DNA of 64,000 bases from Candidatus Bathyarchaeota archaeon (GTDB lineage: Archaea; Thermoproteota; Bathyarchaeia; Bathyarchaeales; Bathycorpusculaceae): positions 2,016,001 to 2,080,000 of the forward strand of contig CAVZJV010000014.1 in NCBI GenBank assembly GCA_963775685.1. The letters run 5' to 3'. The notes beneath the pieces were generated by a model. It did not search any database and had not been told where the DNA came from. It saw only the letters and a program-made list of their open reading frames with translations. The position numbers were made by a program, and so were the translations under genes. Position 1 is the first letter of the stretch; each line of letters opens with the position of its first letter. Below, one piece after another: positions 5,443 to 39,718 of the stretch.

Positions 5443-8028
5443 ATGCTGAAACTAAAAAATAAAACTATAGCTATTTTGATTGCAGCAATCTTGACAATTT
5501 CAATGAGCGCTTCAATAACACTACTGCCAAGCGCTAGTGCACATGACCCACCGTGGACGCTTCCAACATACTGTTTCATCAATATTGCTCCTTCTCCTAT
5601 TGGAGTTGGGCAGCAAGTTAACGTCAACTTCTGGCTTCAAGTGCCTCCACCAACAGCCGCCATGGCTAGTGGGGACAGATGGACAAACATGACCGTACTA
5701 GTCACGCATCCAGATGGAACAACTGAAACCTTAGGGCCTTTCTCATCTGATGACACTGGGGGATCACACACTGTCTATACGCCTTCAGTGGTTGGCAATT
5801 ACACTTTCCAGATGATCTTTGGCGGAAACACCCTACTAGGGCTAAACACGCCCAACGGACAGCCATCGACCAACCCGTTTGTCGGCGATTATTATGAACC
5901 CAGCAAAAGCAACGTATTCACCTTGCCCGTACAACAAGACCCAATTAGCTATGCACCCGTGATTTCACTTCCAACCGAATACTGGACGCGGCCAATCTAT
6001 GCCCAAAACAACGATTTATGGTATGCAATTGGTGGTAACTGGCTTGGTCTTGGAGTGTCAACGTTTGCAAACACTGGCCAATACAACGCTCAAGGAAGCT
6101 ATGCACCATACACAACTGCGCCAAACAGTGCTCACATTATGTGGACAAAGCCTATAGCTTTTGGCGGCACAATTGGAGGAGAATTTGGCAATGATCAACA
6201 AAGCAACTTCTGGTCAACTTCTCAGTATCAGCCAAAGTTTGCGCCAATCATCATTAATGATATGCTCTACTATACTATGTATCCTGGTTCTACTGCTAAT
6301 CCCGCGGGTTGGGCTGCTGTTAACTTGCATACTGGAGAGACAATTTGGACTCAAGACTATACAACTATTCTAAAGTGCGGTCAAATAATGGATTATTTAA
6401 CGCCTAACGAGTATGGTGCTAGAGCTTATCTGTGGGCTACTGGTTCGGTGCCTGGTGTGGTTTCGACTGGAACGACTTACAGTATGTATGATGCTATGAC
6501 GGGCAAATATATCCTTAGCATTGTCAACGGAACAGGTCTTAATTCTATTCAACTTGATGACTACGGCGGCTTAATTGGCTACTATGTTAACGCAAGCGGA
6601 ACTCAGAGATCGCTAACTGTATGGAACTCTACTAGGGCAATAATGCGCGGCGAAAACGGTAATGGCGATCCAAACGGCTGGCAATGGAGACCTCCGCAGG
6701 ACGGAGTGATAGCGTTCCAAAATGGAATAGAATGGTCCGCACCCATCGCAACAACAATTGATGGCAATTCTATAGCTCTAAGCCTTAGCGGCATCAACGG
6801 AGGAGTGGTACTTCTATCGTACGCAAGTGGGCAATCTGCTTACTTCCAGGGCGGATGGTATGTTGTAGCAGGATACAGTGCAGTTGACGGACATTTGCTT
6901 TGGGGACCAAAGAACCATACCGAAGTTGAGAATTCGCGTGTTCTTTTTGGCGCTGAAACTATGGGATATGGGACCTGGGTTGAGTTTGATTCTGCCGCAT
7001 TAACAGCAACAGGCTACAGCTTAACAACTGGTGACAAAATATGGGGACCAAAACCTATGCCAAACGTTAATCCTTTCACTTCGCTTGGTCAACGATACTG
7101 TCCAGGCCCTGATGGAACGATGCTTACTTGGACTTATGGCGGAGATGCTTATTCTATTGATATGGCTACTGGCACTTTTAACTGGGAATACCATGCGCCT
7201 TCGAGCGGTTATGAGTCTCCTTATGGCACTTGGCCATTTTGGACTTTTAGCGTTGGAACGGTTGCAGATGGCAAGCTATTTCTGCCGGTAGGTCACATGT
7301 ATAGTCCGCCGCTATTCCACCACGCACAACAAATGGCATTGAATCTCACCGATGGCTCTGTTGTTTGGAGTATTACTGCTTTTGACGTTACTAGTGCACC
7401 AGCTATCTCTGATGGTATTGCGGTTACGCTAAACGCTTATGACAATCAGCTATATGCATGGGGCAAAGGTCCAACCGTTACATCAGTGTCTGCACCTCAG
7501 GCAGCTATTGATTTAGGCCGATCGATTGTTATTAGTGGTACAGTTATGGATATCTCTGCAGGTGCATCGCAAGAAGTATCAGCCGCGCGCTTTCCTAATG
7601 GTCTTCCATGTGTTTCTGAAGCAAGTCAACAGACTTGGATGGAGTATGTTTACATGCAGCAGCCACGCCCCAACGACGTTACTGGGGTTCCTGTTTCAAT
7701 CGATGTAATTGACTCCAACGGTAATCTGCGTACCATCGGCACAGCTACAAGTGATGCAAGCGGCGCGTTTAGTTTCCAGTGGACTCCTGATATCGAAGGC
7801 AAATACACTGTTATTGCGACATTTCTGGGATCTGAGTCTTACTATTCGTCTTACTCTGAAGCTGCTTTCGCGGTTGATCCTGTTGCTACACCAACGTCTG
7901 CACCTGCTGATACTTTGCTTGGATTGGCGACAACTAATGATCTTTTGATGTACATGGCTGCTTCTGTGGTTGCTATAATCGTTGCCATTGCCATAGTTGG
8001 CATACTGCTGCTTAAGAAAAACCCCTAG
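5443..8028 (+). CDS. Large secreted, C-terminally anchored beta-propeller ('PQQ-binding-like') surface protein, paralog A
   Basis: Signal peptide, Ig-like N-domain, W-rich propeller repeats, conserved RFPNG..WMEYVY.Q domain, and a TM helix ending KKNP. Confidence 0.85.
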   Translation: MLKLKNKTIAILIAAILTISMSASITLLPSASAHDPPWTLPTYCFINIAPSPIGVGQQVNVNFWLQVPPPTAAMASGDRWTNMTVLVTHPDGTTETLGPFSSDDTGGSHTVYTPSVVGNYTFQMIFGGNTLLGLNTPNGQPSTNPFVGDYYEPSKSNVFTLPVQQDPISYAPVISLPTEYWTRPIYAQNNDLWYAIGGNWLGLGVSTFANTGQYNAQGSYAPYTTAPNSAHIMWTKPIAFGGTIGGEFGNDQQSNFWSTSQYQPKFAPIIINDMLYYTMYPGSTANPAGWAAVNLHTGETIWTQDYTTILKCGQIMDYLTPNEYGARAYLWATGSVPGVVSTGTTYSMYDAMTGKYILSIVNGTGLNSIQLDDYGGLIGYYVNASGTQRSLTVWNSTRAIMRGENGNGDPNGWQWRPPQDGVIAFQNGIEWSAPIATTIDGNSIALSLSGINGGVVLLSYASGQSAYFQGGWYVVAGYSAVDGHLLWGPKNHTEVENSRVLFGAETMGYGTWVEFDSAALTATGYSLTTGDKIWGPKPMPNVNPFTSLGQRYCPGPDGTMLTWTYGGDAYSIDMATGTFNWEYHAPSSGYESPYGTWPFWTFSVGTVADGKLFLPVGHMYSPPLFHHAQQMALNLTDGSVVWSITAFDVTSAPAISDGIAVTLNAYDNQLYAWGKGPTVTSVSAPQAAIDLGRSIVISGTVMDISAGASQEVSAARFPNGLPCVSEASQQTWMEYVYMQQPRPNDVTGVPVSIDVIDSNGNLRTIGTATSDASGAFSFQWTPDIEGKYTVIATFLGSESYYSSYSEAAFAVDPVATPTSAPADTLLGLATTNDLLMYMAASVVAIIVAIAIVGILLLKKNP

Positions 8029-8051: not shown

Positions 8052-8068
8052 TCTTTCCCCTTTTTTAG
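8052..8068 (+). terminator. Pyrimidine-rich (CCC + T-run) archaeal terminator candidate
   Basis: TCTTTCCCCTTTTTTAG after the stop codon. The same signature follows stops at ~1938, ~2766, ~32855 and ~39507. Confidence 0.5.
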
Positions 8069-8107
8069 TTTTGTATTGGCAATAATTCGCTTTGGTAATT
8101 GGAAAGG

Positions 8108-8210
8108 GCTGAGTAGGCTCTGGACACAATTCACGATACAATAGCCGTAGTTATCGTGAAGAGCGTTTTGCATTTCGCTCTTTTCTCCTAATACGTTCCA
8201 GAACCTCAGC
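8108..8210. ncRNA. Structured repeat element, copy 1 (candidate regulatory RNA)
   Basis: Closing stem GCTGA..GGCTCTGGA / TCCAGAACC.TCAGC. Internal hairpins TTCACGATA/TATCGTGAA (8130-38/8152-60) and GAGCG/CGCTC (8161-65/8176-80). Homologous to 39560-39655. Confidence 0.7.
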
Positions 8211-8229
8211 AAACTTTTCCAAAAAACAT

Positions 8230-10926: not shown

Positions 10927-13515
10927 TTGGGGGCAAATGATATTCCTAAAAAACTTGCGGTAGTAGTTGTCTTGGTTTTGTTGCTTGCTTCGTCGGTTTT
11001 TGCCGTAATTCCAATTTTTCAGGCAAGCTCTGTCAGTGCACAAGTTAACTCTAACTCAACTTCCAGCAACATCTTAAATCAGTATGAGTGGACGCAGTTT
11101 CAGGGTGATGCCTCATTTACTCGATTCTCAGCCGGACCAGCCCCTAACACACCTAACATACTTTGGAGAGCCAGCGTAGACGGAATACAACCTTACATAA
11201 CAGCGTTTAACGGAATGATTTTCGTAGGTACAAACACCTCGATGGTTGCCCTTGACCAAGCAGGGAATACTCTTTGGAAAACTGAGATTCCGATGAACAA
11301 GACTTGGCCAATAGCCTACAAAATTGATGATTCACATTTAGTGGTTGAAAGCAGTTGCCTTGATATCAGCACGGGCAAGATTTTGTGGACGAGTTCAACT
11401 TTCACCTCTGACACTGGTATCTTCAATTCAGCCGTTTACAGTGCAGCAGAAAAAATTTTCTACACTAAGGTAAATTCGTACATTTTAGCTTGGGACTTTT
11501 CAGATCCTTCTCAACCCCCACCTTTGGCTTGGCAAACTTACATCCCCGGAGGCGGCATAACCGGGATCGGAATAACTTACGGTGAAGGAAAAGTTTTCAC
11601 GGGGTCTTTCATGAATCAGCAATTAGCACTTGACGCCAAGATAGGAGAAATCATATGGACGACTCTTACGCATGGTCCTATGATTTTTAATGGTGCCTAC
11701 TCTGACGGGAGGTACTTTATAGGTGGAACAGATGACAACACAATGTACAGTTTTAATTCGACTAACGGTCAGGTTCTTTGGACATACTCGCCAGGTACTA
11801 ATGGATACTTCACAACTGGTCCAGCTGTTGCATATGGAATGGTCTATGAAATGAACAAGGACGGTTACCTCTACGCCATCAACGTTGAAACGGGCATCCC
11901 CGTATGGAGATACAAGGGGCCCGATGAAAACCTGATATGGCCTGGAATGCCAACGGTTGCAGATGGCAAAATCTATGTAACAACCGGTGAACTGGCTCAA
12001 TATGTGACTCAGTATCAGACGTACTCTGAGTTTGCCTGTTTGAGTGCTTATACTGGTCAGGTTATTTGGAAGCTTCCCATAGAAGCATTGGCTCCAAGGG
12101 AATCTGCTATAGTTGCTTATGGCAACCTCTACATTATCCCTGGTAGCGTGACAACTGCTGTTGATACAACGTCAGGAACTGAATACACAACAGATAGCGA
12201 ACTATGGGCAATTGGAACCAATTCTATTACTGTTAGTAATTGGTCTATGTGGAGAGCTGATTCAACCCATTCTTCTACTTCACAAGTCGGACCTTCCAAT
12301 CTTTCTTTAGCTTGGAAATTCGAGACTAATGGGTCGGTAATATCTTCGCCGAGCGTTGTAGATGGAATCGTGTATGTTGGCTCGCAGGATAAGAGCATCT
12401 ATGCGATTGGAGCTTGGAGCGGCAGTTTGATATGGAAATATGCAACGAATGGTGCTATCATTTCTTCACCTGCTGTAGCGGAAGGCAAAGTTTTCGTGGG
12501 AAGTGAAGATGGATACGTTTATTCTCTTAATGCTAATATCGGTAGCCTAGTTTGGAAAACTTTCGTTAGAAGCAACGTTTCATTCACCTTTGGAGATTTA
12601 GTTCTTAAATCTTCACCAGCCGTTGCAAATGGCAAGGTCTACATCGGTTCATTAGACGGCAACTTGTACGCTCTCGACGCAAACAGCGGCAATATCCTCT
12701 GGAAGACTGAGACTGGTGGACCCATTGAATCCTCTCCAGCCGTGGCTGACGGCGCGGTATACTTCACTTCGCAAGAACCAAATGCAGGAGGTCTCTACAA
12801 ATTGAATGCTGACACTGGAGCTTTGATTTGGAAACAGACTCTTCCCTATCAGATTTCTTTTATTGGAGGCACAGAATTACTTGGTTCGCCCTCGGTTGCA
12901 GCGGGCATGGTTTTTGCATCCTCCAACTGGGGCGCTTACTACGCAGTAAATGAAGCAACAGGTAATATCATTTGGAAATTTATAGACAAAGAAGCCATCG
13001 AATTCATCGTTTCATCCCCAATCTACGCTAACGGTAACCTCTTCATCATCGACAAATTCAACATAGCTTGTCTCAATGCGTCCAACGGAAACATGCTTTG
13101 GAGTACCTTCACCGGAGACGAACTCTACACCTCACCATCTTACGCTGATGGCAAAATCTACCTCGCAACCAGCCAACGCGACGTATTCATCCTTGACACC
13201 ACCCGTAACGGGACAAAAATTGCAACCGCTATCCTGCCCTCTAGCAGTTGGTCTTCGCCCACCTTAGCCAACGGAAGATTATACATCGGATGCAACGACT
13301 GGAACGTTTACTCCTTCGCCAACGAAATCACTAACCAAACACCAGCCCCAACTTCAACTCCACCAGATAACACTTCATATAGATCCCTCTTGTCAGTGTT
13401 GATTATAGTTTTAGTTCTTGCTTTGATCGGCTCAGTGGCGGCTGTTATTTACTTTAGGGGTAAAAACCGATTAAAAATTGTTGCGCCTTTGCCACAGAAA
13501 TTCTTTAGCAATTGA
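10927..13515 (+). CDS. Secreted membrane-anchored tandem PQQ-like/BamB-like beta-propeller protein
   Basis: Signal peptide, many SSPAVA.G.VY.GS.DG.LYAL.A..G...W repeats in two propeller blocks, a Pro/Thr linker and a C-terminal TM helix. Confidence 0.85.
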   Translation: MGANDIPKKLAVVVVLVLLLASSVFAVIPIFQASSVSAQVNSNSTSSNILNQYEWTQFQGDASFTRFSAGPAPNTPNILWRASVDGIQPYITAFNGMIFVGTNTSMVALDQAGNTLWKTEIPMNKTWPIAYKIDDSHLVVESSCLDISTGKILWTSSTFTSDTGIFNSAVYSAAEKIFYTKVNSYILAWDFSDPSQPPPLAWQTYIPGGGITGIGITYGEGKVFTGSFMNQQLALDAKIGEIIWTTLTHGPMIFNGAYSDGRYFIGGTDDNTMYSFNSTNGQVLWTYSPGTNGYFTTGPAVAYGMVYEMNKDGYLYAINVETGIPVWRYKGPDENLIWPGMPTVADGKIYVTTGELAQYVTQYQTYSEFACLSAYTGQVIWKLPIEALAPRESAIVAYGNLYIIPGSVTTAVDTTSGTEYTTDSELWAIGTNSITVSNWSMWRADSTHSSTSQVGPSNLSLAWKFETNGSVISSPSVVDGIVYVGSQDKSIYAIGAWSGSLIWKYATNGAIISSPAVAEGKVFVGSEDGYVYSLNANIGSLVWKTFVRSNVSFTFGDLVLKSSPAVANGKVYIGSLDGNLYALDANSGNILWKTETGGPIESSPAVADGAVYFTSQEPNAGGLYKLNADTGALIWKQTLPYQISFIGGTELLGSPSVAAGMVFASSNWGAYYAVNEATGNIIWKFIDKEAIEFIVSSPIYANGNLFIIDKFNIACLNASNGNMLWSTFTGDELYTSPSYADGKIYLATSQRDVFILDTTRNGTKIATAILPSSSWSSPTLANGRLYIGCNDWNVYSFANEITNQTPAPTSTPPDNTSYRSLLSVLIIVLVLALIGSVAAVIYFRGKNRLKIVAPLPQKFFSN

Positions 13516-29888: not shown

Positions 29889-29952
29889 AAATTAAAGGAG
29901 AAAGAAAAATGCAAAAAATAAAAAACAGAACTATGGCTATTTTGATTGTAGC
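29889..29952 (+). promoter_or_regulatory. Translation-initiation region of paralog B, matched by the two structured elements
   Basis: AAATTAAAGGAGAAAGA-AAAATGCAAAA-...-ACTATGGCTATTT-TGATTGTAGC: SD-like AAGGAG, the ATG and early codons. A TATA-like TTTTATAAA lies at ~29823. Confidence 0.65.
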
Positions 29953-32830
29953 AATTTTGACAGTTTCAATGACAACTTCAATATTATTAGCACCTAGTGC
30001 TAGCGCACATACGCCTGGATGGAATATTCCTACCTATGCATACATCGTTGCAGCACCTGACCCCGTAGGAGTCGGTCAAGAAGTACACATTTACATGTGG
30101 CTTGACCCCGTTTACGGAGTAGCAGGCGGATCTACTGCAGCCATTGGCACGAATGCTTCTACAGCTAGTGCAGCTTTGACAGCAAACTTTTACAGATTCA
30201 AAAACTACCAGCTCACAATCACAGCCCCTGACGGAACAACCACATCACAAACCTTTGCCACCATAACAGACACCACATCCTCACAATTTACCAGATTCGC
30301 TCCAGACCAAGTCGGCACATACACTTTCAACTTCACATACCCAGGACAAGTCTACGGCGAGAACGGCAACGGCTACGAAAACTCAATACTGATAGGCGAC
30401 TCTTACTTAGGTAGCACGGCATCTACAACTCTTACTGTTCAGCAAGATCCAATACCTGGGCCCTTAGGCAGCTCTCCGCTTCCAACACAGTACTGGACAC
30501 ACCCAATTTACGGCGAAGGCACAGACTGGTGGACAGTCTCCTCTGACTGGCTAGGTTCAGGATCACCCGTTCTAAGCGGCTATACCAGCAACAGGCTCTA
30601 CGTGCCCGACGGCATAGGACCTTTGACCTCTCACGTGATGTGGACACGTCCACTTCAGTTTGGAGGAGTTGTTGGAGGAAACGCATTTGTCGAGGGCGGC
30701 ACTAACCCCAACGGTGCAGTTCAAGGAGTCTCATACTTCGAAGGCAGCTCATACGAACCAAGATTCAGCAATCCAATAATAATCAGCGGCATTCTCTTCT
30801 ACACCGAAGTAATTTCCTTCACAGGTCCCAGCAGTGGACCAACCACGGCTGTTGATCTTCGTACAGGGCAAGTTCTTTGGTCTCGCACCGATGTGGCACC
30901 GCTTTCATTTGGCTATATCTACAATCTTTGGAATGGTGATCAACATGGAACTTTCCCGCCAATACTGTTCACATCCAACTTTGGCAGAGCTTATGATGCA
31001 TACACAGGCGAGCAGTTGTTTAACGTAACTGGTGTTCCTTCAGGCACCTCGGTGTCTGGTCCAACTGGTGAGCAGATACGTTATGTTATAAGAAACGCTG
31101 GCACAAACAATAATCCGCAATGGTATTTGTCTGAGTGGAACTCTAGCAAACTCTGGCAGTACGATGTCAACCCCTACACTGGCGGTGGAAGCTTTAACCC
31201 ATCCGTTATAAACGCAAGCAACCTGGTAATAATTTCAAATATTCCGGCTAATCCAAATACATCCGGCTCAGGCACGAGACCAACTTCAACCGGTGGAGTA
31301 TCTAACCCAGTTTATTATGGTGATACAATCGAAGTCAATGCAGACATTCCGATTAACATTACAACTATTGGAGGGCAACGCGGCGGAGTTGGTGTTGCCG
31401 GTCAAGGCATAACAACATACGACTGGAACTATTCACTACCCTGGCTAAACACAATGCCCCTAGCACCAACCTACAGCACAACAACAGGAGAAGTAACATT
31501 GCCACCTAAGGGATCAAATCCTGTATCGGTGATCGCAGCTAGCTATGGCGATGTGATGCTCTGCAGAAACGGCTCACTACCCGTTGGATATAAGGGAAAT
31601 AGCAATGGCGGCTTGCAGCTTCCTTACACGATGTTCACTGTTAACCTCAACGCCTCACGCGGAGCTGTCGGCTCGATACTTTGGATGAAAACATACGACC
31701 CCGTACAAGGCAACATCACCTACGCAAATGGCGCAGTCGATTTCCAGAACCGTGTCTTCTACTTTAACTATGAGGAAACACTCAATTGGGTAGCCTACAG
31801 TTTGGACAATGGCAACCTCCTATACACAACTCCGCGTCAAGCAGACTTTGACTACTACGGTGTGGGCAACACTATGCTAAGTGTTCCAGCTTACGGCAAC
31901 CTCTACACCAGCGGATTCTCAGGCACATGCTACGCATACAATATCGTAACAGGCCAACTGCAGTGGACATGGGGCAACGGCGGCGAAGGCAACAGCACAA
32001 ACGCTGGCCTATCTCTCTCATATGGGCATTATCCAACGTTTATTCAATCGATTGCTGGCGGTGTAATCTACTTGGCAACAAATGAACACACCATACCAAA
32101 TCCACTCTACAAGGGCACTACATATACTGCTCTTAACGCATCTACTGGCGAGTTGATTTGGCAGCTTTCTGGCTATCCCAGTGAGTGGTCTACTCCTGGT
32201 AGTGCTTGGGCTGTTGCAGACGGCTATTTGACATGCATGAACGGCTTGGATAACAACATCTACAGCATCGGCAAAGGACCCAGTGCAATGACAGTTTCAG
32301 CTCCAGACCTATCGGCAGCCTCAGGACAGGCAGTGGTGATACATGGCGCAGTGACGGATATTTCGGCAGGTACAAAGCAGAGCCAGCAGGCAGCAGACTT
32401 TCCAGCGGGTGTTCCAGTTGCAGCTGACTCTATCATGAAAGACTGGATGGGCTATGTCTATCAGCAGAAGGCGCTTCCTAGCAACTTTATTGGCGTTGAT
32501 GTTACAATAAATGTTGTTGATGCAAACGGAAACTTTAGAAGTATTGGAACAGCAACAACCGACTACACTGGCGCATATAATCTAGTGTGGCAACCAGACA
32601 TTTCAGGCACATACAATGTTATTGCTACTTTTGCAGGCACCAACGCTTACTGGCCATCATCTGCAACTGCGGCGTTTAATGTAATGGAGGAGCATCCGAC
32701 TTTATCGCCCTCGCCTACTCTGGCGCCGTCTATGTCTGATCAATACTTCCTACCGGCAATTGCAGGGCTATTTGTCTTTGTAGCTGTAATTGGCGTTGTC
32801 ATAATCTTAGTGCTAAGAAAACGGCCATAA
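29909..32830 (+). CDS. Large secreted anchored beta-propeller surface protein, paralog B
   Basis: Same architecture as 5443 (signal peptide, YWTHPIY, propeller, FPAGVP..WMGYVYQQ, TM helix ending RKRP). Confidence 0.85.
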   Translation: MQKIKNRTMAILIVAILTVSMTTSILLAPSASAHTPGWNIPTYAYIVAAPDPVGVGQEVHIYMWLDPVYGVAGGSTAAIGTNASTASAALTANFYRFKNYQLTITAPDGTTTSQTFATITDTTSSQFTRFAPDQVGTYTFNFTYPGQVYGENGNGYENSILIGDSYLGSTASTTLTVQQDPIPGPLGSSPLPTQYWTHPIYGEGTDWWTVSSDWLGSGSPVLSGYTSNRLYVPDGIGPLTSHVMWTRPLQFGGVVGGNAFVEGGTNPNGAVQGVSYFEGSSYEPRFSNPIIISGILFYTEVISFTGPSSGPTTAVDLRTGQVLWSRTDVAPLSFGYIYNLWNGDQHGTFPPILFTSNFGRAYDAYTGEQLFNVTGVPSGTSVSGPTGEQIRYVIRNAGTNNNPQWYLSEWNSSKLWQYDVNPYTGGGSFNPSVINASNLVIISNIPANPNTSGSGTRPTSTGGVSNPVYYGDTIEVNADIPINITTIGGQRGGVGVAGQGITTYDWNYSLPWLNTMPLAPTYSTTTGEVTLPPKGSNPVSVIAASYGDVMLCRNGSLPVGYKGNSNGGLQLPYTMFTVNLNASRGAVGSILWMKTYDPVQGNITYANGAVDFQNRVFYFNYEETLNWVAYSLDNGNLLYTTPRQADFDYYGVGNTMLSVPAYGNLYTSGFSGTCYAYNIVTGQLQWTWGNGGEGNSTNAGLSLSYGHYPTFIQSIAGGVIYLATNEHTIPNPLYKGTTYTALNASTGELIWQLSGYPSEWSTPGSAWAVADGYLTCMNGLDNNIYSIGKGPSAMTVSAPDLSAASGQAVVIHGAVTDISAGTKQSQQAADFPAGVPVAADSIMKDWMGYVYQQKALPSNFIGVDVTINVVDANGNFRSIGTATTDYTGAYNLVWQPDISGTYNVIATFAGTNAYWPSSATAAFNVMEEHPTLSPSPTLAPSMSDQYFLPAIAGLFVFVAVIGVVIILVLRKRP

Positions 32831-36931: not shown

Positions 36932-39484
36932 ATGAAAAATAAAATGAAATATAGCAAAATATTTGCAACCTTGATAATATTGGCTTTTATGATTTCAATC
37001 GTTCCAATAACACAAGTTAAAGCACAGACAGCAGTAACTACATTAAAAACCTACCCAGTGTGCGATGCTGTTCCAGACCCGGTAGGTCTCGGACAGGACG
37101 TACTGGTAAAATTCGGAATTCTACAGCAGGCAGGCGCCGTTGAGCAAGGCTGGACGGGTGTAACTGTAACTGTTGTTAAACCTGATAACACCACAGAAAC
37201 ACTTGGGCCATTCAGAACAGATTCAACAGGGTCATCCTTTACATTATACACACCTGACCAAGTTGGCACATACTACTTAACGACACACTTCCCTGAACAA
37301 ACAAACCCCGTTGGCTTCTTCAGCTATGAAGCAAATGTGTTCATAGCCGAAGGCACGATAATGGCAGCAAGTACTAGTGCAACTGTAACCCTTAATGTAC
37401 AGCAGGAACCTTTGACGGATTATCCAGGGCATGCTCTTCCAACAGAATACTGGACTCGACCAATTGATGACCAGCTTAGGGAATGGTATTCAATCTCAGG
37501 AAACTGGGTTGGCGTACCTGACGCTAACAATAATTATTGGGTAAGCAATGGTCTCTACAACGATGATGCGCCAGAAACTGCTCACGTTCTATGGGCAAAC
37601 CCATTGACTACAGGCGGATTAACCGGAGGCCTAATAGGCGACCCGTTAGTTCCAGCAGGCTCTGAAACAGGCGATGCATACGAAGGCAAATTCCCAGGAT
37701 CAATAATATTGAATGGAATACTCTACTACCAGCGAACAGACACAAGAGCTGAACAAGCACCAGCAATAATTGCAGTAGATCTACACACTGGAGAACAATG
37801 GATGTTCAGAAACAATACTGTACTATCATTCGGTCAAATCTTCTACTTCAACAGCTACAACTCTGACGGAGTATTCACTTATGTCTGGTCAGTATCTGGC
37901 AGCACTTATACCGCATATGATCCATTCACCGGCAATCAGCAAATAGAAATTAAGAACGTACCTTCTGGCGTTAGAACATACGGTCCAAGCGGCGAGATCC
38001 TCATTTACATAATGGACTACACAAACGGATGGATGGCTCTCTGGAACTCAACCGATTGCGGACTTCAGAATGCAGTTATCGGCACTCCTGATTACGGCAG
38101 CTGGGGCAACACAGCTCACGGAACCGCATTGGGACCCGGATTAGACGGCGCAAACCCAAGATGCATCACATGGAACGTATCTATACCCGCAGGATTATCA
38201 GCTAGCACTTCATTCTTCGCACCAATATTGAAGGTCTATCCCGATAGAGTAATGTCCATGGTCTTCAATCAATCACAAGTCGAAGTATGGGCATTAAGTA
38301 CAACCGCAGGTTCAAGAGGACACTTATTATTCGACAAAACCTGGCAAGCACCAGCTGAATGGGTAGAAGGTTCCAACACTATAAACTATGTTGGCGCAAC
38401 TAGCCAAGTCGCAAATGGCGTTATCGCCTTATGGGACAAAGAACTACAAAAACACTATGCGTTCAGTACAGAAACTGGCGATTACCTCTGGCAAACAGAC
38501 TCTGAAATCTACTTAGATGCTTATGGCTGGGGCAACGCAGAGCACACATGGTACTTCGCATATGACCACTTGTATTCAGTCGGCGTTGGCGGAATAGTCT
38601 ATGCTTACAATCTCGCAACAGGCCACACAGATTGGACTTATGCAATGTCAGATCCATATAATGAACCTGTAACAGGCGAGAACTGGTGGGGCTGGATAGA
38701 TCTAATTACAGATGGAAAAATCTATGTCGGCACACTAGAGCACTCCGCTGAGAATCCAATACCACGTGGCGGACCCTACATATGTCTTAATGCAACAGAC
38801 GGCTCTGTTATCTGGCGAGTCAACGGAATGTTCCGAGAAACCCGCTGGGGCGGTAACGGAATCATCGGTGACAGCATCATAACTACAATGGACACATATG
38901 ATCAAAGAGTATACGCAATCGGCAAAGGTCCAACCGCCATTACGCTTGCAGCTTCACCGAAGGTTTCAGTAGAAGGCAGCAGCATTTTAGTGGAAGGCAT
39001 GGTAACTGACACTTCTCCAGGCACAGAGAAATACGCTGCTACATCAAGATTCCCGAACGGTGTTCCAGCAGTTTCAGACGAAAGCATGAGCGATTGGATG
39101 CTATACGTATACAAACAGTTTGATCGTCCAAACAATGCAACTGGCGTTTCAGTATCCATAGATGTTTTAGATGCTAACGGCAACTTTAGAAACGTCGGCA
39201 CAACAACAAGCGACTCTACCGGTTCATATAGTTTCAGTTGGATACCTGACATTCCAGGAAAATACACAGTTTTCGCTACCTTCGCTGGCTCGAAAGCTTA
39301 TTATGCATCATCAACTGAAAGCGCCTTCGTTGTCGACGTAGCACCACAAGCAACCGCAGCACCAACTGAACATCCAGCATCTATGGCTGATCAGTACTTC
39401 CTGCCACTATCAATTGGTATGATATTGGCAATAATAGTCATCGGCCTAATCCTTGCACTTCTGCTGCTAAGGAAACGACCATAA
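36932..39484 (+). CDS. Large secreted anchored beta-propeller surface protein, paralog C
   Basis: Same architecture (LPTEYWTRPI, RFPNGVPAVSDESMSDWMLYVYKQ, TM helix ending RKRP). Confidence 0.85.
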   Translation: MKNKMKYSKIFATLIILAFMISIVPITQVKAQTAVTTLKTYPVCDAVPDPVGLGQDVLVKFGILQQAGAVEQGWTGVTVTVVKPDNTTETLGPFRTDSTGSSFTLYTPDQVGTYYLTTHFPEQTNPVGFFSYEANVFIAEGTIMAASTSATVTLNVQQEPLTDYPGHALPTEYWTRPIDDQLREWYSISGNWVGVPDANNNYWVSNGLYNDDAPETAHVLWANPLTTGGLTGGLIGDPLVPAGSETGDAYEGKFPGSIILNGILYYQRTDTRAEQAPAIIAVDLHTGEQWMFRNNTVLSFGQIFYFNSYNSDGVFTYVWSVSGSTYTAYDPFTGNQQIEIKNVPSGVRTYGPSGEILIYIMDYTNGWMALWNSTDCGLQNAVIGTPDYGSWGNTAHGTALGPGLDGANPRCITWNVSIPAGLSASTSFFAPILKVYPDRVMSMVFNQSQVEVWALSTTAGSRGHLLFDKTWQAPAEWVEGSNTINYVGATSQVANGVIALWDKELQKHYAFSTETGDYLWQTDSEIYLDAYGWGNAEHTWYFAYDHLYSVGVGGIVYAYNLATGHTDWTYAMSDPYNEPVTGENWWGWIDLITDGKIYVGTLEHSAENPIPRGGPYICLNATDGSVIWRVNGMFRETRWGGNGIIGDSIITTMDTYDQRVYAIGKGPTAITLAASPKVSVEGSSILVEGMVTDTSPGTEKYAATSRFPNGVPAVSDESMSDWMLYVYKQFDRPNNATGVSVSIDVLDANGNFRNVGTTTSDSTGSYSFSWIPDIPGKYTVFATFAGSKAYYASSTESAFVVDVAPQATAAPTEHPASMADQYFLPLSIGMILAIIVIGLILALLLLRKRP

Positions 39485-39559
39485 AAACAATCCACTACAA
39501 ACAACTCTTCCCTTTTTTTAGTCTCAACATCTTTTAGAAAATTTGAAGAACAGGTAGGG

Positions 39560-39655
39560 GCTGAGAAGGCTCCGGCAACAATTAACGAAATAGCCATAGT
39601 AAAAGAGCTTTTGCATTTTCGCTCTTTCTCCTTGAATTTAGTCCAGAGCCTCAGC
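39560..39655. ncRNA. Structured repeat element, copy 2 (candidate regulatory RNA)
   Basis: Closing stem GCTGA..GGCTCCGG / CCAGAGCC.TCAGC. Hairpin AAAGAGC/GCTCTTT (39602-08/39621-27) with loop TTTTGCATTTTC. Homologous to 8108-8210. Confidence 0.7.
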
Positions 39656-39718
39656 AAATCCAAACACAAAAACAAAAGCGTCAATTGGCTTCCTAACTAA
39701 CTTATGGTTTCTTCTGAC

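Follow-up and report, generated by a model that had tools for sequence, protein, structure and literature searches.

The 64,000-nucleotide (nt) stretch of DNA analyzed here (hereafter the window) derives from a Candidatus Bathyarchaeota genome (GCA_963775685.1, contig CAVZJV010000014.1, positions 2,016,001 to 2,080,000 of the forward strand) and thus from the Bathyarchaeia, which are abundant, uncultured archaea. It contains two copies of a structured element of about 100 nt, each shortly downstream of a gene for a surface-protein paralog. We find that the element belongs to a repeat family linked to one expanded gene family, and that its interior is antisense to the consensus ribosome-binding site (RBS), start codon, and early codons of that gene family and not to those of one paralog alone. 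The strongest result of our analysis is co-variation at the level of the lineage: as judged from sequence comparison, the interior appears to track the family 5′ ends through a change of Shine-Dalgarno (SD) type, start context, and early codons. We tentatively read the element as a plus-strand anti-start RNA module acting on sibling mRNAs, a reading to which we give a little less than even weight.

Every sequence detail of the preliminary description of this window, which had concerned the two copies and three paralogs that we call A, B, and C, was found where that description had placed it. The features, with protein lengths in amino acids (aa) and stems in base pairs (bp), are as follows.

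5443..8028, plus strand: paralog A (861 aa), host gene of copy 1, with a signal-peptide-like N-terminus, weak PQQ_2 beta-propeller and Big_3_5 matches, and a C-terminal hydrophobic anchor
8057..8069, plus strand: spacer motif before copy 1, a C-run followed by T6 and AGT (CCCCTTTTTTAGT), archaeal-terminator-like, between the stop codon and the element
8108..8210, plus strand: core of element copy 1, scoring 101.5 bits with our covariance model R1
8108-8112 (GCTGA) and 8116-8123 (GGCTCTGG), pairing with 8198-8205 (CCAGAACC) and 8206-8210 (TCAGC): outer stem of copy 1
8130..8160, plus strand: hairpin 1 of copy 1, a 9-bp stem of TTCACGATA (8130-8138) and TATCGTGAA (8152-8160) with the loop CAATAGCCGTAGT
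8161..8180, plus strand: hairpin 2 of copy 1, a stem of GAGCG (8161-8165) and CGCTC (8176-8180) with the loop TTTTGCATTT
8181..8189, plus strand: linker TTTTCTCCT of copy 1, antisense to the family SD AGGAGAAAA
29896..29941, plus strand: translation initiation region of paralog B, with the SD AGGAGAAAG (29896-29904), ATG at 29909, and ACTATGGCTATT (29930-29941), among the best predicted partners
29909..32830, plus strand: paralog B (973 aa), with a consensus 5′ end and without a downstream element
36932..39484, plus strand: paralog C (850 aa), host gene of copy 2, its own 5′ end not matching the element
39510..39522, plus strand: spacer motif before copy 2, a C-run followed by T7 and AGT
39560..39655, plus strand: core of element copy 2, R1 score 108.5 bits, without hairpin 1
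39560-39564 (GCTGA), pairing with 39651-39655 (TCAGC): closing stem of copy 2
39605-39624: hairpin 2 of copy 2, a GAGC/GCTC stem enclosing TTTTGCATTTTC
39588-39600 (AAATAGCCATAGT) and 39625-39633 (anti-SD TTTCTCCTT): antisense segments of copy 2

The cores begin 79 nt past the stop codon of A (8028) and 75 nt past that of C (39484), and no element was found within 400 nt downstream of B, in agreement with the earlier placement of the element ~80 nt behind A and C and not behind B. The conserved unit of copy 1 also takes in the flanking GGG (8106-8108) and AAAC (8211-8214), and the 5′ arm of its closing stem has a 3-nt bulge. Its hairpin 1 loop CAATAGCCGTAGT is antisense, with one G.U pair, to ACTATGGCTATT (codons ~8-11 of consensus family genes), its hairpin 2 loop TTTTGCATTT is antisense to the start codon context AAATGCAAAA, and its linker TTTTCTCCT is similar to the 3′ tail of 16S rRNA, CACCTCCT. 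The minus strand of both copies reads as an RBS, an ATG, and some codons, and it is because of this resemblance that both are complementary to the start of paralog B. That match, from which silencing of B as one particular sibling had been proposed, is present, but the matched sequence is the family-wide consensus 5′ end and B is not a specific target. In most paralogs of the genome the start runs ...AGGAGAAA(A)GAAAAATGCAAAAA...AAAACTATGGCTATTTTGATTGC, and three to four collinear stretches of it recur in the element interior as their reverse complement. They are the SD and ATGCAAA, joined by ACTATGGCTATT or by TTTTGATTGCAGC according to the element sub-family.

The complementarity of the two window copies was ranked over the 5′ windows of the 3648 open reading frames (ORFs) of at least 100 aa in the genome, 46 of these windows being family 5′ ends. 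For each copy, nine of the ten best scores fell on family 5′ ends, bearing out the expectation that paralog starts would be among the top predicted targets, and paralog B ranked 15 for copy 1 and 2 for copy 2. The host genes are poor partners, as had been noted at the outset for A: A ranks 221 for copy 1 and 39 for copy 2, and C 596 and 655, respectively. The net cofolding energy of copy 2 with the B start was -29.7 kcal/mol against -3.1 ± 2.4 kcal/mol for 100 mononucleotide shuffles, and that of copy 1 with B was -9.9 against -1.8 ± 1.6 kcal/mol for shuffled sequence, whereas copy 1 with A gave only -2.6 kcal/mol and copy 2 with C -3.6 kcal/mol. The match between the copies and the family 5′ ends exceeds chance. 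Within the family, the fraction of identical codons is 0.71 over codons 1-8, 0.47 over codons 9-20, and ~0.43 elsewhere, the first bin being dominated by Lys and Asn codons in an AT-rich genome.

Comparison with relatives shows how the interior changes. In what follows G000 is the genome of the window, g1 denotes genomes of the same genus, and g16, which includes G052, is a genus in another family of the same order. The family 5′ ends read AGGAGAAA/ATGCAAAA in the one lineage and GAAGGTGA/ATGAAAAA in the other, and the element interior changes along with them: in G052 the family genes begin GAAGGTGA..ATGAAAAA....TTGCTACTATCACTTTGGT, and the interiors of the elements there are the reverse complement of exactly these pieces, with an outer stem that is the same as in G000. 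Scoring was performed on 47 gene-element pairs, the 48 built less one duplicate; L116, in which the start was mis-set, and L149, which had no start, were left out. The G000 elements score 23.3 on G000 start regions and 18.4 on those of G052, and the G052 elements score 30.6 on G052 start regions and 24.9 on those of G000, relative to ~18 for a sense-orientation control of the same elements. In five divergent single loci (L184, L198, L155, L157, and L150) the start of the element's own gene ranks 1, 3, 4, 6, and 8 of 47, respectively, and the similarity of the L184 element runs on into the 5′ untranslated region (UTR), upstream of the SD. The interior follows the family consensus of its lineage and not the host gene; the proposal that loops would covary with paralog 5′ ends holds between lineages, and fails at the level of the single gene, where the element's own gene is matched no better than a sibling.

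The preliminary description had recognized only the two window copies. A BLAST search of G000 returned 13 matches with E below 0.001, and two subsequent nhmmer rounds (E≤0.01) brought the repeat family to 34 matches. The associated proteins, ~850-970 aa in length, start with a segment resembling a signal peptide, end in a hydrophobic anchor, and match PQQ_2 and Big_3_5 weakly; in G000, similarity to them is seen in 75 ORFs of at least 100 aa, and 33 paralogs are full-length. A systematic search of the same-strand arrangement placed 19 of the 34 matches 46-117 nt past the stop codon of a family ORF, and 23 of the 34 have family coding similarity within 900 nt upstream when pseudogene pieces are included; the 11 without upstream family sequence are mostly weak or partial matches plus a few solo copies. 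Among the loci fetched from other genomes, 46 of 57 nhmmer matches (one of the 57 being window copy 2) lie behind a family ORF, most of them at 35-90 nt. Overall, the element is positioned ~35-120 nt past the family stop codon, on the same strand, behind a C-rich/T-run terminator-like motif, and the earlier claim that it is tied to this gene family is upheld. Dispersal regardless of the neighboring gene, as in a generic miniature inverted-repeat transposable element (MITE) or REP sequence, was not observed, given that 19 of 34 matches in G000 and 46 of 57 elsewhere stand behind one family on the same strand, and the objection that the copies might be such a generic repeat fails.

To extend the survey, the covariance model R1 was built from 26 G000 copies and searched in 60 related genomes, giving hundreds of matches. 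R1 matched 28 of 36 g1 genomes and both g16 genomes, and the element was not found in any of the 22 further genomes of the same order. The distribution of the protein family runs parallel to this (36 of 36, two of two, and none of 22, respectively), and every genome with the element also has the family.

The structure of the element is under selection. In an alignment of 95 matches to R1 from 100 sources (11 G000 copies, 56 loci from the genome searches, and 33 of 78 related loci; 94 distinct copies), the proposed pairs form in 88.0% of cells, compared with 79.2% after shuffling, and changes on both sides occur in 15 of 19 pairs. The covariation score is 0.247 as opposed to 0.131 in shuffled alignments (reached by 0 of 500 shuffles) and 0.03-0.06 with slid partners, although this alignment was fitted to R1 and so favors the model. 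An independent MAFFT/RNAalifold alignment of 29 g16 copies also recovered compensatory change, in 8 of 15 pairs, and there the stem extends outward by ~11 bp whose sequences differ between copies yet stay complementary; the g16 flanks, read by eye, are inverted complements that lengthen the stem and not direct repeats. It is from the pairing, the two-sided changes, the covariation above shuffles, and the compensation in the independent alignment that we conclude selection on structure, formed either in RNA or in single-stranded DNA, and the stems are, as had been anticipated, kept by compensatory change. Mean pairwise identity over 300 pairs is 0.70 for the element, relative to 0.55 for the last 300 nt of the coding sequence, 0.60 for the spacer, and 0.37 for the DNA downstream.

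The antisense segments tend to be predicted as unpaired. In the 19 of 26 G000 copies that hold both motifs, the anti-start motif has a mean unpaired probability of 0.83, and the unpaired probability of the anti-SD is 0.59 in G000 copies and 0.81 in g16 copies. The element of g16 (L114-L129, G052) holds both an anti-start TTTTTCATTTT and a sense copy, AAAATGAAAAA, which pair with each other. Because of this internal pairing the g16 anti-start is predicted to be sequestered (unpaired probability 0.11) and the anti-SD to be open (0.81). With regard to strand, hairpin 2 has 60 G.U and 14 A.C pairs when read as the plus strand, in a part of the alignment that is noisy, and this inner hairpin alone favors the plus strand in mismatch counts.

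In G000, 13 of the 33 full-length paralogs carry an element and 20 do not. The start regions of the former match less well, with a mean of 21.8 (n=13) against 25.4 (n=20; Mann-Whitney p=0.016), and an ATGCAA start is present in 2 of 13 genes with an element and in 12 of 20 without (Fisher two-sided ~0.015, a hand calculation on genes that are not independent). The poorer match of element-bearing genes recurs in several separate clades of the paralog tree. The pattern in this genome is consistent with paralogs being divided into senders that have escaped through their changed starts and receivers that retain the target.

The mechanism that we favor would proceed as follows. A conserved, structured module, attached to the 3′ flank of the genes of an expanded Bathyarchaeia surface-protein family, would be transcribed from the plus strand, most likely by read-through of the T-run after the stop codon. 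The resulting RNA would form the long closing stem, which would hold out the sequences antisense to the family RBS, start codon, and first codons, and these would pair with family mRNA 5′ ends and so block translation initiation and/or trigger decay. Its partners in G000 would be mainly the sibling paralogs that lack an element, and in g16 the mRNA bearing the element may be among them; G000 agrees with action in trans on siblings, and in g16 cis and trans action are indistinguishable. Our preference for an anti-start RNA is based on the fixed polarity of the element, its selected stems, the unpaired antisense segment, the tracking of the 5′ ends, and the top-ranked family partners. Synthesis of a plus-strand RNA, its pairing, and repression as the consequence are the steps we infer. 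A more elaborate form of the same idea, which we think possible but unlikely, is an RNA hierarchy within the surface-protein family, in which element carriers would export an anti-start RNA silencing consensus-start siblings, their own starts having drifted (self-immunity), such that one protein subset would be displayed at a time while module and 5′ ends co-evolve across genera.

Several observations, in this paragraph and in the next, weigh against the anti-start RNA. A run of at least five T residues lies in the spacer between stop codon and element in 62 of the 64 copies with a recognizable upstream stop, starting at a median of 28 nt past the stop, and further such runs occur inside 34 of the 64 elements. 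The distance from the end of the T-run to GCTGA has medians of 29.5, 31, and 27 nt in three groups. As seen in the window and in loci L057-L113, the spacer motif in the genus of G000 is CCCCTTTTTTAGT (CCCC-T6/7-AGT), with AGT behind the T-run in 19 of 22 G000 copies. Its counterpart in g16, CTCCC-T7-GGGAG, makes a small hairpin whose loop is the T-run. Where a family gene lacks the element, the T-run is present by eye and the AGT is not. Such a tract is the usual termination signal of archaea and should end many transcripts before the element. A TATA-like box at -45 to -20 is not conserved: among g1 copies 16 of 49 have one, among g16 copies 0 of 27, and a promoter of the element's own is not supported. 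With a T-run ahead and no conserved TATA-like box, a full-length plus-strand RNA therefore needs read-through, and this dependence is the main weakness of the RNA model. The outer stem carries no strand signature (53 G.U against 52 A.C pairs on the plus strand), making it uninformative for assigning a strand, and folding energy shows no strand preference either, the plus strand being the more stable in 14 of 26 G000 copies and 5 of 16 G052 copies (hand count). An element matches the start of its own gene no better than the starts of other paralogs, with ranks evenly spread among 19 and 13 genes. Furthermore, the start contrast between genes with and without an element is not phylogenetically independent, and G052 has no such contrast, since 14 of 15 family genes there carry an element. 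Cross-regulation with mutual exclusion, as first proposed for this window, accordingly agrees with the worse-matching starts of element-bearing genes in G000 and is not general, because in g16 nearly every family gene carries the element and own and sibling starts match equally.

The further difficulties are also those that speak for the main rival, a repeat acting at the level of DNA, selfish or recombination-related, that spreads or is exchanged among the 3′ flanks of the family. Templated copying from 5′ ends or short-patch gene conversion, as opposed to selection on an RNA duplex, would keep its interior similar to those ends; we consider such a repeat unlikely overall, while allowing it a real chance. 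The number of R1 matches is patchy, from 0 to 28 per congener genome, and none of 19 sampled family genes of G027, G010, and G030, congeners with no or one match, carries an element or a complementary 3′ flank. (The 3′ flanks of these 19 genes score 21.6 on average, against 20.0 for a sense control, means calculated by hand, and show only a plain T-run, leading us to reject alternative elements in these congeners.) Presence of the element is scattered and nearly unclustered on the protein tree, with 8 changes compared with 10.5 after shuffling (160 of 2000 shuffles at or below), and element copies that are 0.90-0.91 identical lie beside genes only 0.26-0.66 identical. A DNA-level repeat is also favored by the solo copies among the 11 of 34 matches without upstream family sequence, by truncated half-elements, by a collapsed element at the related locus L130, ~60-95 nt past the gene stop, in which the outer arms are joined directly (GGGGGCTGAG-CCTCAGCAAACCCC) and the interior is gone, leaving the outer stem only, by the lack of strand bias in the outer stem, and by L184, where the similarity extends upstream of the SD as would be expected if it were copied. 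A second copy of paralog B, termed B′ (G000:C14:2300356-2303283, minus strand), encodes a protein 96-99% identical to B, split into two ORFs; the two are similar from a point ~40 nt into the signal-peptide coding part as far as the stop codon, and B′ carries an element almost identical to that of C where its twin B has none. From sequence, this pattern looks like gene conversion of a whole cassette between family loci.

On the other side of the balance, the position and orientation of the element are fixed to one gene family in two families of the order. A search for the Y1 transposase PF01797 gave no matches in G000, which is 96.9% complete (other transposase families were not searched), and the same search was positive in 6 of 14 known genomes used as a control; a REPIN/RAYT system is rejected on this basis. 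No full-length parent was seen, nor any family gene with the outer arms around its 5′ end, and the stretches of identity with 5′ ends span only ~10-20 nt, broken up by stems, and would be short gene conversion tracts. Conservation of the element exceeds that of the neighboring coding sequence, and a DNA repeat leaves the unpaired location of the anti-start and anti-SD segments unexplained. An invertible interior (inverton) is likewise rejected, as the 63 arm-defined copies from G000 and fetched loci, all of them assembled sequence, comprised 48 in the antisense orientation, 15 ties, and none flipped. Half-elements had been considered as inversion products beside 5′ ends, and this too was rejected, the two 3′-half copies being plain truncations.

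An alternative within the RNA world is that the element lies in the 3′ UTR of its host mRNA and folds back onto the start region of that transcript to repress or protect it, in the manner of Staphylococcus aureus icaR. Such cis 5′-3′ pairing would account well for the same-strand position directly behind the gene, for G052 with its 14 of 15 element-bearing family genes whose own starts match as well as those of siblings, and for L184, L198, and L155, which match their own genes best or nearly best. It is nevertheless improbable overall: in G000 the hosts are poor partners (A at rank 221 and C at rank 655 of 3648, with the energies of -2.6 and -3.6 kcal/mol within the shuffled range) and 11 of the 13 full-length element-bearing genes lack the mirrored ATGCAA start. 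An own start region that ranks no better than those of other paralogs, and a T-run ahead of the element, also count against it.

The long stable stem directly behind a terminator-like T-run, often between convergent genes, could instead be an mRNA-end hairpin that assists termination, blocks 3′ exonucleases, or insulates convergent genes from each other, with a functionless resemblance to the start region. Bacterial repeated extragenic palindromes are known in such roles. We regard this explanation as decidedly improbable here, for it accounts neither for three collinear antisense blocks that change with the family 5′ ends in at least three lineages nor for the restriction to one gene family. 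Finally, activity of the minus strand, as a start-region mimic (SD plus ATG) serving as decoy for a regulator or ribosomes or as the start of a small ORF, is very improbable: most copies do offer a good SD-spacer-ATG reading and the outer-stem mismatches are equally compatible with either strand, but the ORFs from the mimic ATG are 1-71 aa without common sequence or frame, 3 of 30 copies lack the ATG, conservation is lacking downstream of the element (0.37 identity), the expected site of a minus-strand promoter, and hairpin 2 favors the plus strand (60 G.U against 14 A.C). A conserved minus-strand small protein is rejected on the same ORF evidence, and therefore no peptide explains the conservation of the element.

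The statement that no equivalent had been described proved too strong, since bacterial 3′ UTR pairing to SD regions (icaR, OppZ/CarZ, NarS) and archaeal small RNAs (sRNAs) with a loop-borne anti-RBS (sRNA154, sRNA41) are on record. The 5′-3′ UTR pairing of the icaR mRNA of S. aureus (PMC3868564), as outlined in that report, is similar to what we propose in that a 3′ flank or UTR sequence complementary to the SD region would block translation initiation. Unlike icaR, a single and self-acting bacterial gene in that account, the element occurs in ~30 copies per genome behind paralogs of one archaeal family, its interior mirrors the SD, start codon, and early codons together, and its host genes in G000 are poor partners. 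OppZ/CarZ and NarS are RNase E-released, Hfq-dependent RNAs of Enterobacteria and Vibrio. As presented in the main accounts, 3′ UTR-derived sRNAs of this kind act in autoregulation or in mRNA cross-regulation (OppZ/CarZ, PMC7398697; NarS, PMC7038943; review, PMC9438474), and the element would resemble them as a regulatory RNA tied to an mRNA 3′ end that pairs with a related mRNA start, one mRNA controlling another. They are single loci, and the element is a multi-copy family with a long closing stem. Above-chance complementarity to a target SD/start region, as expected of icaR/OppZ-type regulators, is present (nine of the ten top scores on family 5′ ends; -29.7 against -3.1 ± 2.4 kcal/mol), and co-variation of the pairing regions is present between lineages and not between genes. 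The same-strand position also fits this type, but a T-tract of at least five residues stands ahead of the element in 62 of 64 copies.

Among archaeal RNAs, sRNA154, sRNA41, and sRNA162 of Methanosarcina mazei are described as masking ribosome-binding sites (PMC5867862, PMC3510493), sRNA154 through a loop carrying an anti-RBS sequence (PMC5867862). As portrayed there they are single intergenic genes with their own promoters and unrelated targets, while the element is repeated, stands behind the very family it mirrors, and has no recognizable promoter. In form the element resembles repeated extragenic palindromes, from which it differs by its restriction to one gene family and by the absence of a detected Y1 transposase. 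REP/REPIN, ERIC, and Correia sequences are imperfect palindromes of ~100 nt in many copies and patchy numbers, usually just after genes; some affect mRNA stability or the translation of neighbors, they spread regardless of gene family, and REPINs depend on RAYT (Y1) transposases. We know of no repeat of the REP, ERIC, or Correia type that mirrors the start region of the family it flanks. By the defining features tested, the element is a member of none of the systems compared, and it would appear, on sequence grounds, to be new as a variant of 3′-end-borne anti-start regulation. In the literature searched, which did not extend to subscription journals and supplements, we found no regulatory RNA of Bathyarchaeia and no description of this element.

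If it acts as RNA, the element would be the first gene-family-wide, multi-copy anti-start regulator in archaea, and it would offer a simple control over which of ~30-40 surface-protein paralogs is made, with a purpose like that of antigenic or phase variation. Should it act as DNA, the two ends of a gene would still be linked in an unusual and testable way, by a repeat that mirrors the start of the family it flanks and follows that start in evolution. The R1 model also marks the true 3′ ends of family genes and thereby aids their annotation.

Known RNA and DNA structures were also compared. Six copies were searched against Rfam 15 at E≤10, and a single match was returned: one copy, read on its minus strand, scored 15.5 bits with sR53 (E=0.5; gathering score 49); membership of an Rfam family is rejected, and so is a box C/D sRNA, as the sR53 match is at chance level only. 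The archaeal splicing endonuclease acts on a bulge-helix-bulge, in which a central 4-bp helix separates two 3-nt bulges that lie on opposite strands, each 5′ of the helix. The element does have two opposite-strand 3-nt bulges, but they are 5 bp apart (GCTGA/TCAGC) and each lies 3′ of the central helix. Integron attC sites end in the R″/R′ core sites RYYYAAC ... GTTRRRY and occur in cassette arrays beside an integrase. The element ends GGGGCTGAG ... CTCAGCAAACCC (other strand, GGGTTTGCTGAG) without core sites, and its copies are single behind family genes, although no integrase search was made.

Some individual loci deserve mention. The family genes G000:C14:51152-53755 and C14:819173-821776 are identical, with upstream elements (50723 and 822102) that are 0.90 identical and a downstream flank at 0.94; the pair is a recent segmental duplication, the second copy being without the upstream gene. 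A solo element stands behind a tRNA gene (G000:C14:1247737-1247820), and tRNA genes directly adjoin some family 3′ flanks (loci L135, L137, L160, and L180). Only the match at L139:4133-4205 (nhmmer E=5e-4) runs opposite in strand to its adjacent family gene. Its interior reads SD plus ATGCAAA in the sense of that gene, and the match may be an inverted copy or part of something downstream. In the window, a 97-aa ORF with a TTG start (39391-39684, minus strand) overlaps copy 2 and the end of paralog C, and is most likely a by-product of the mimic start and not a gene. Between A and B, the window also encodes (10927-13515) a different, strongly PQQ-like beta-propeller protein (Beta-prop_ACSF4, 242 bits) without an element. 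In genome G004 (L057), a relative of this protein type does have an element behind it.

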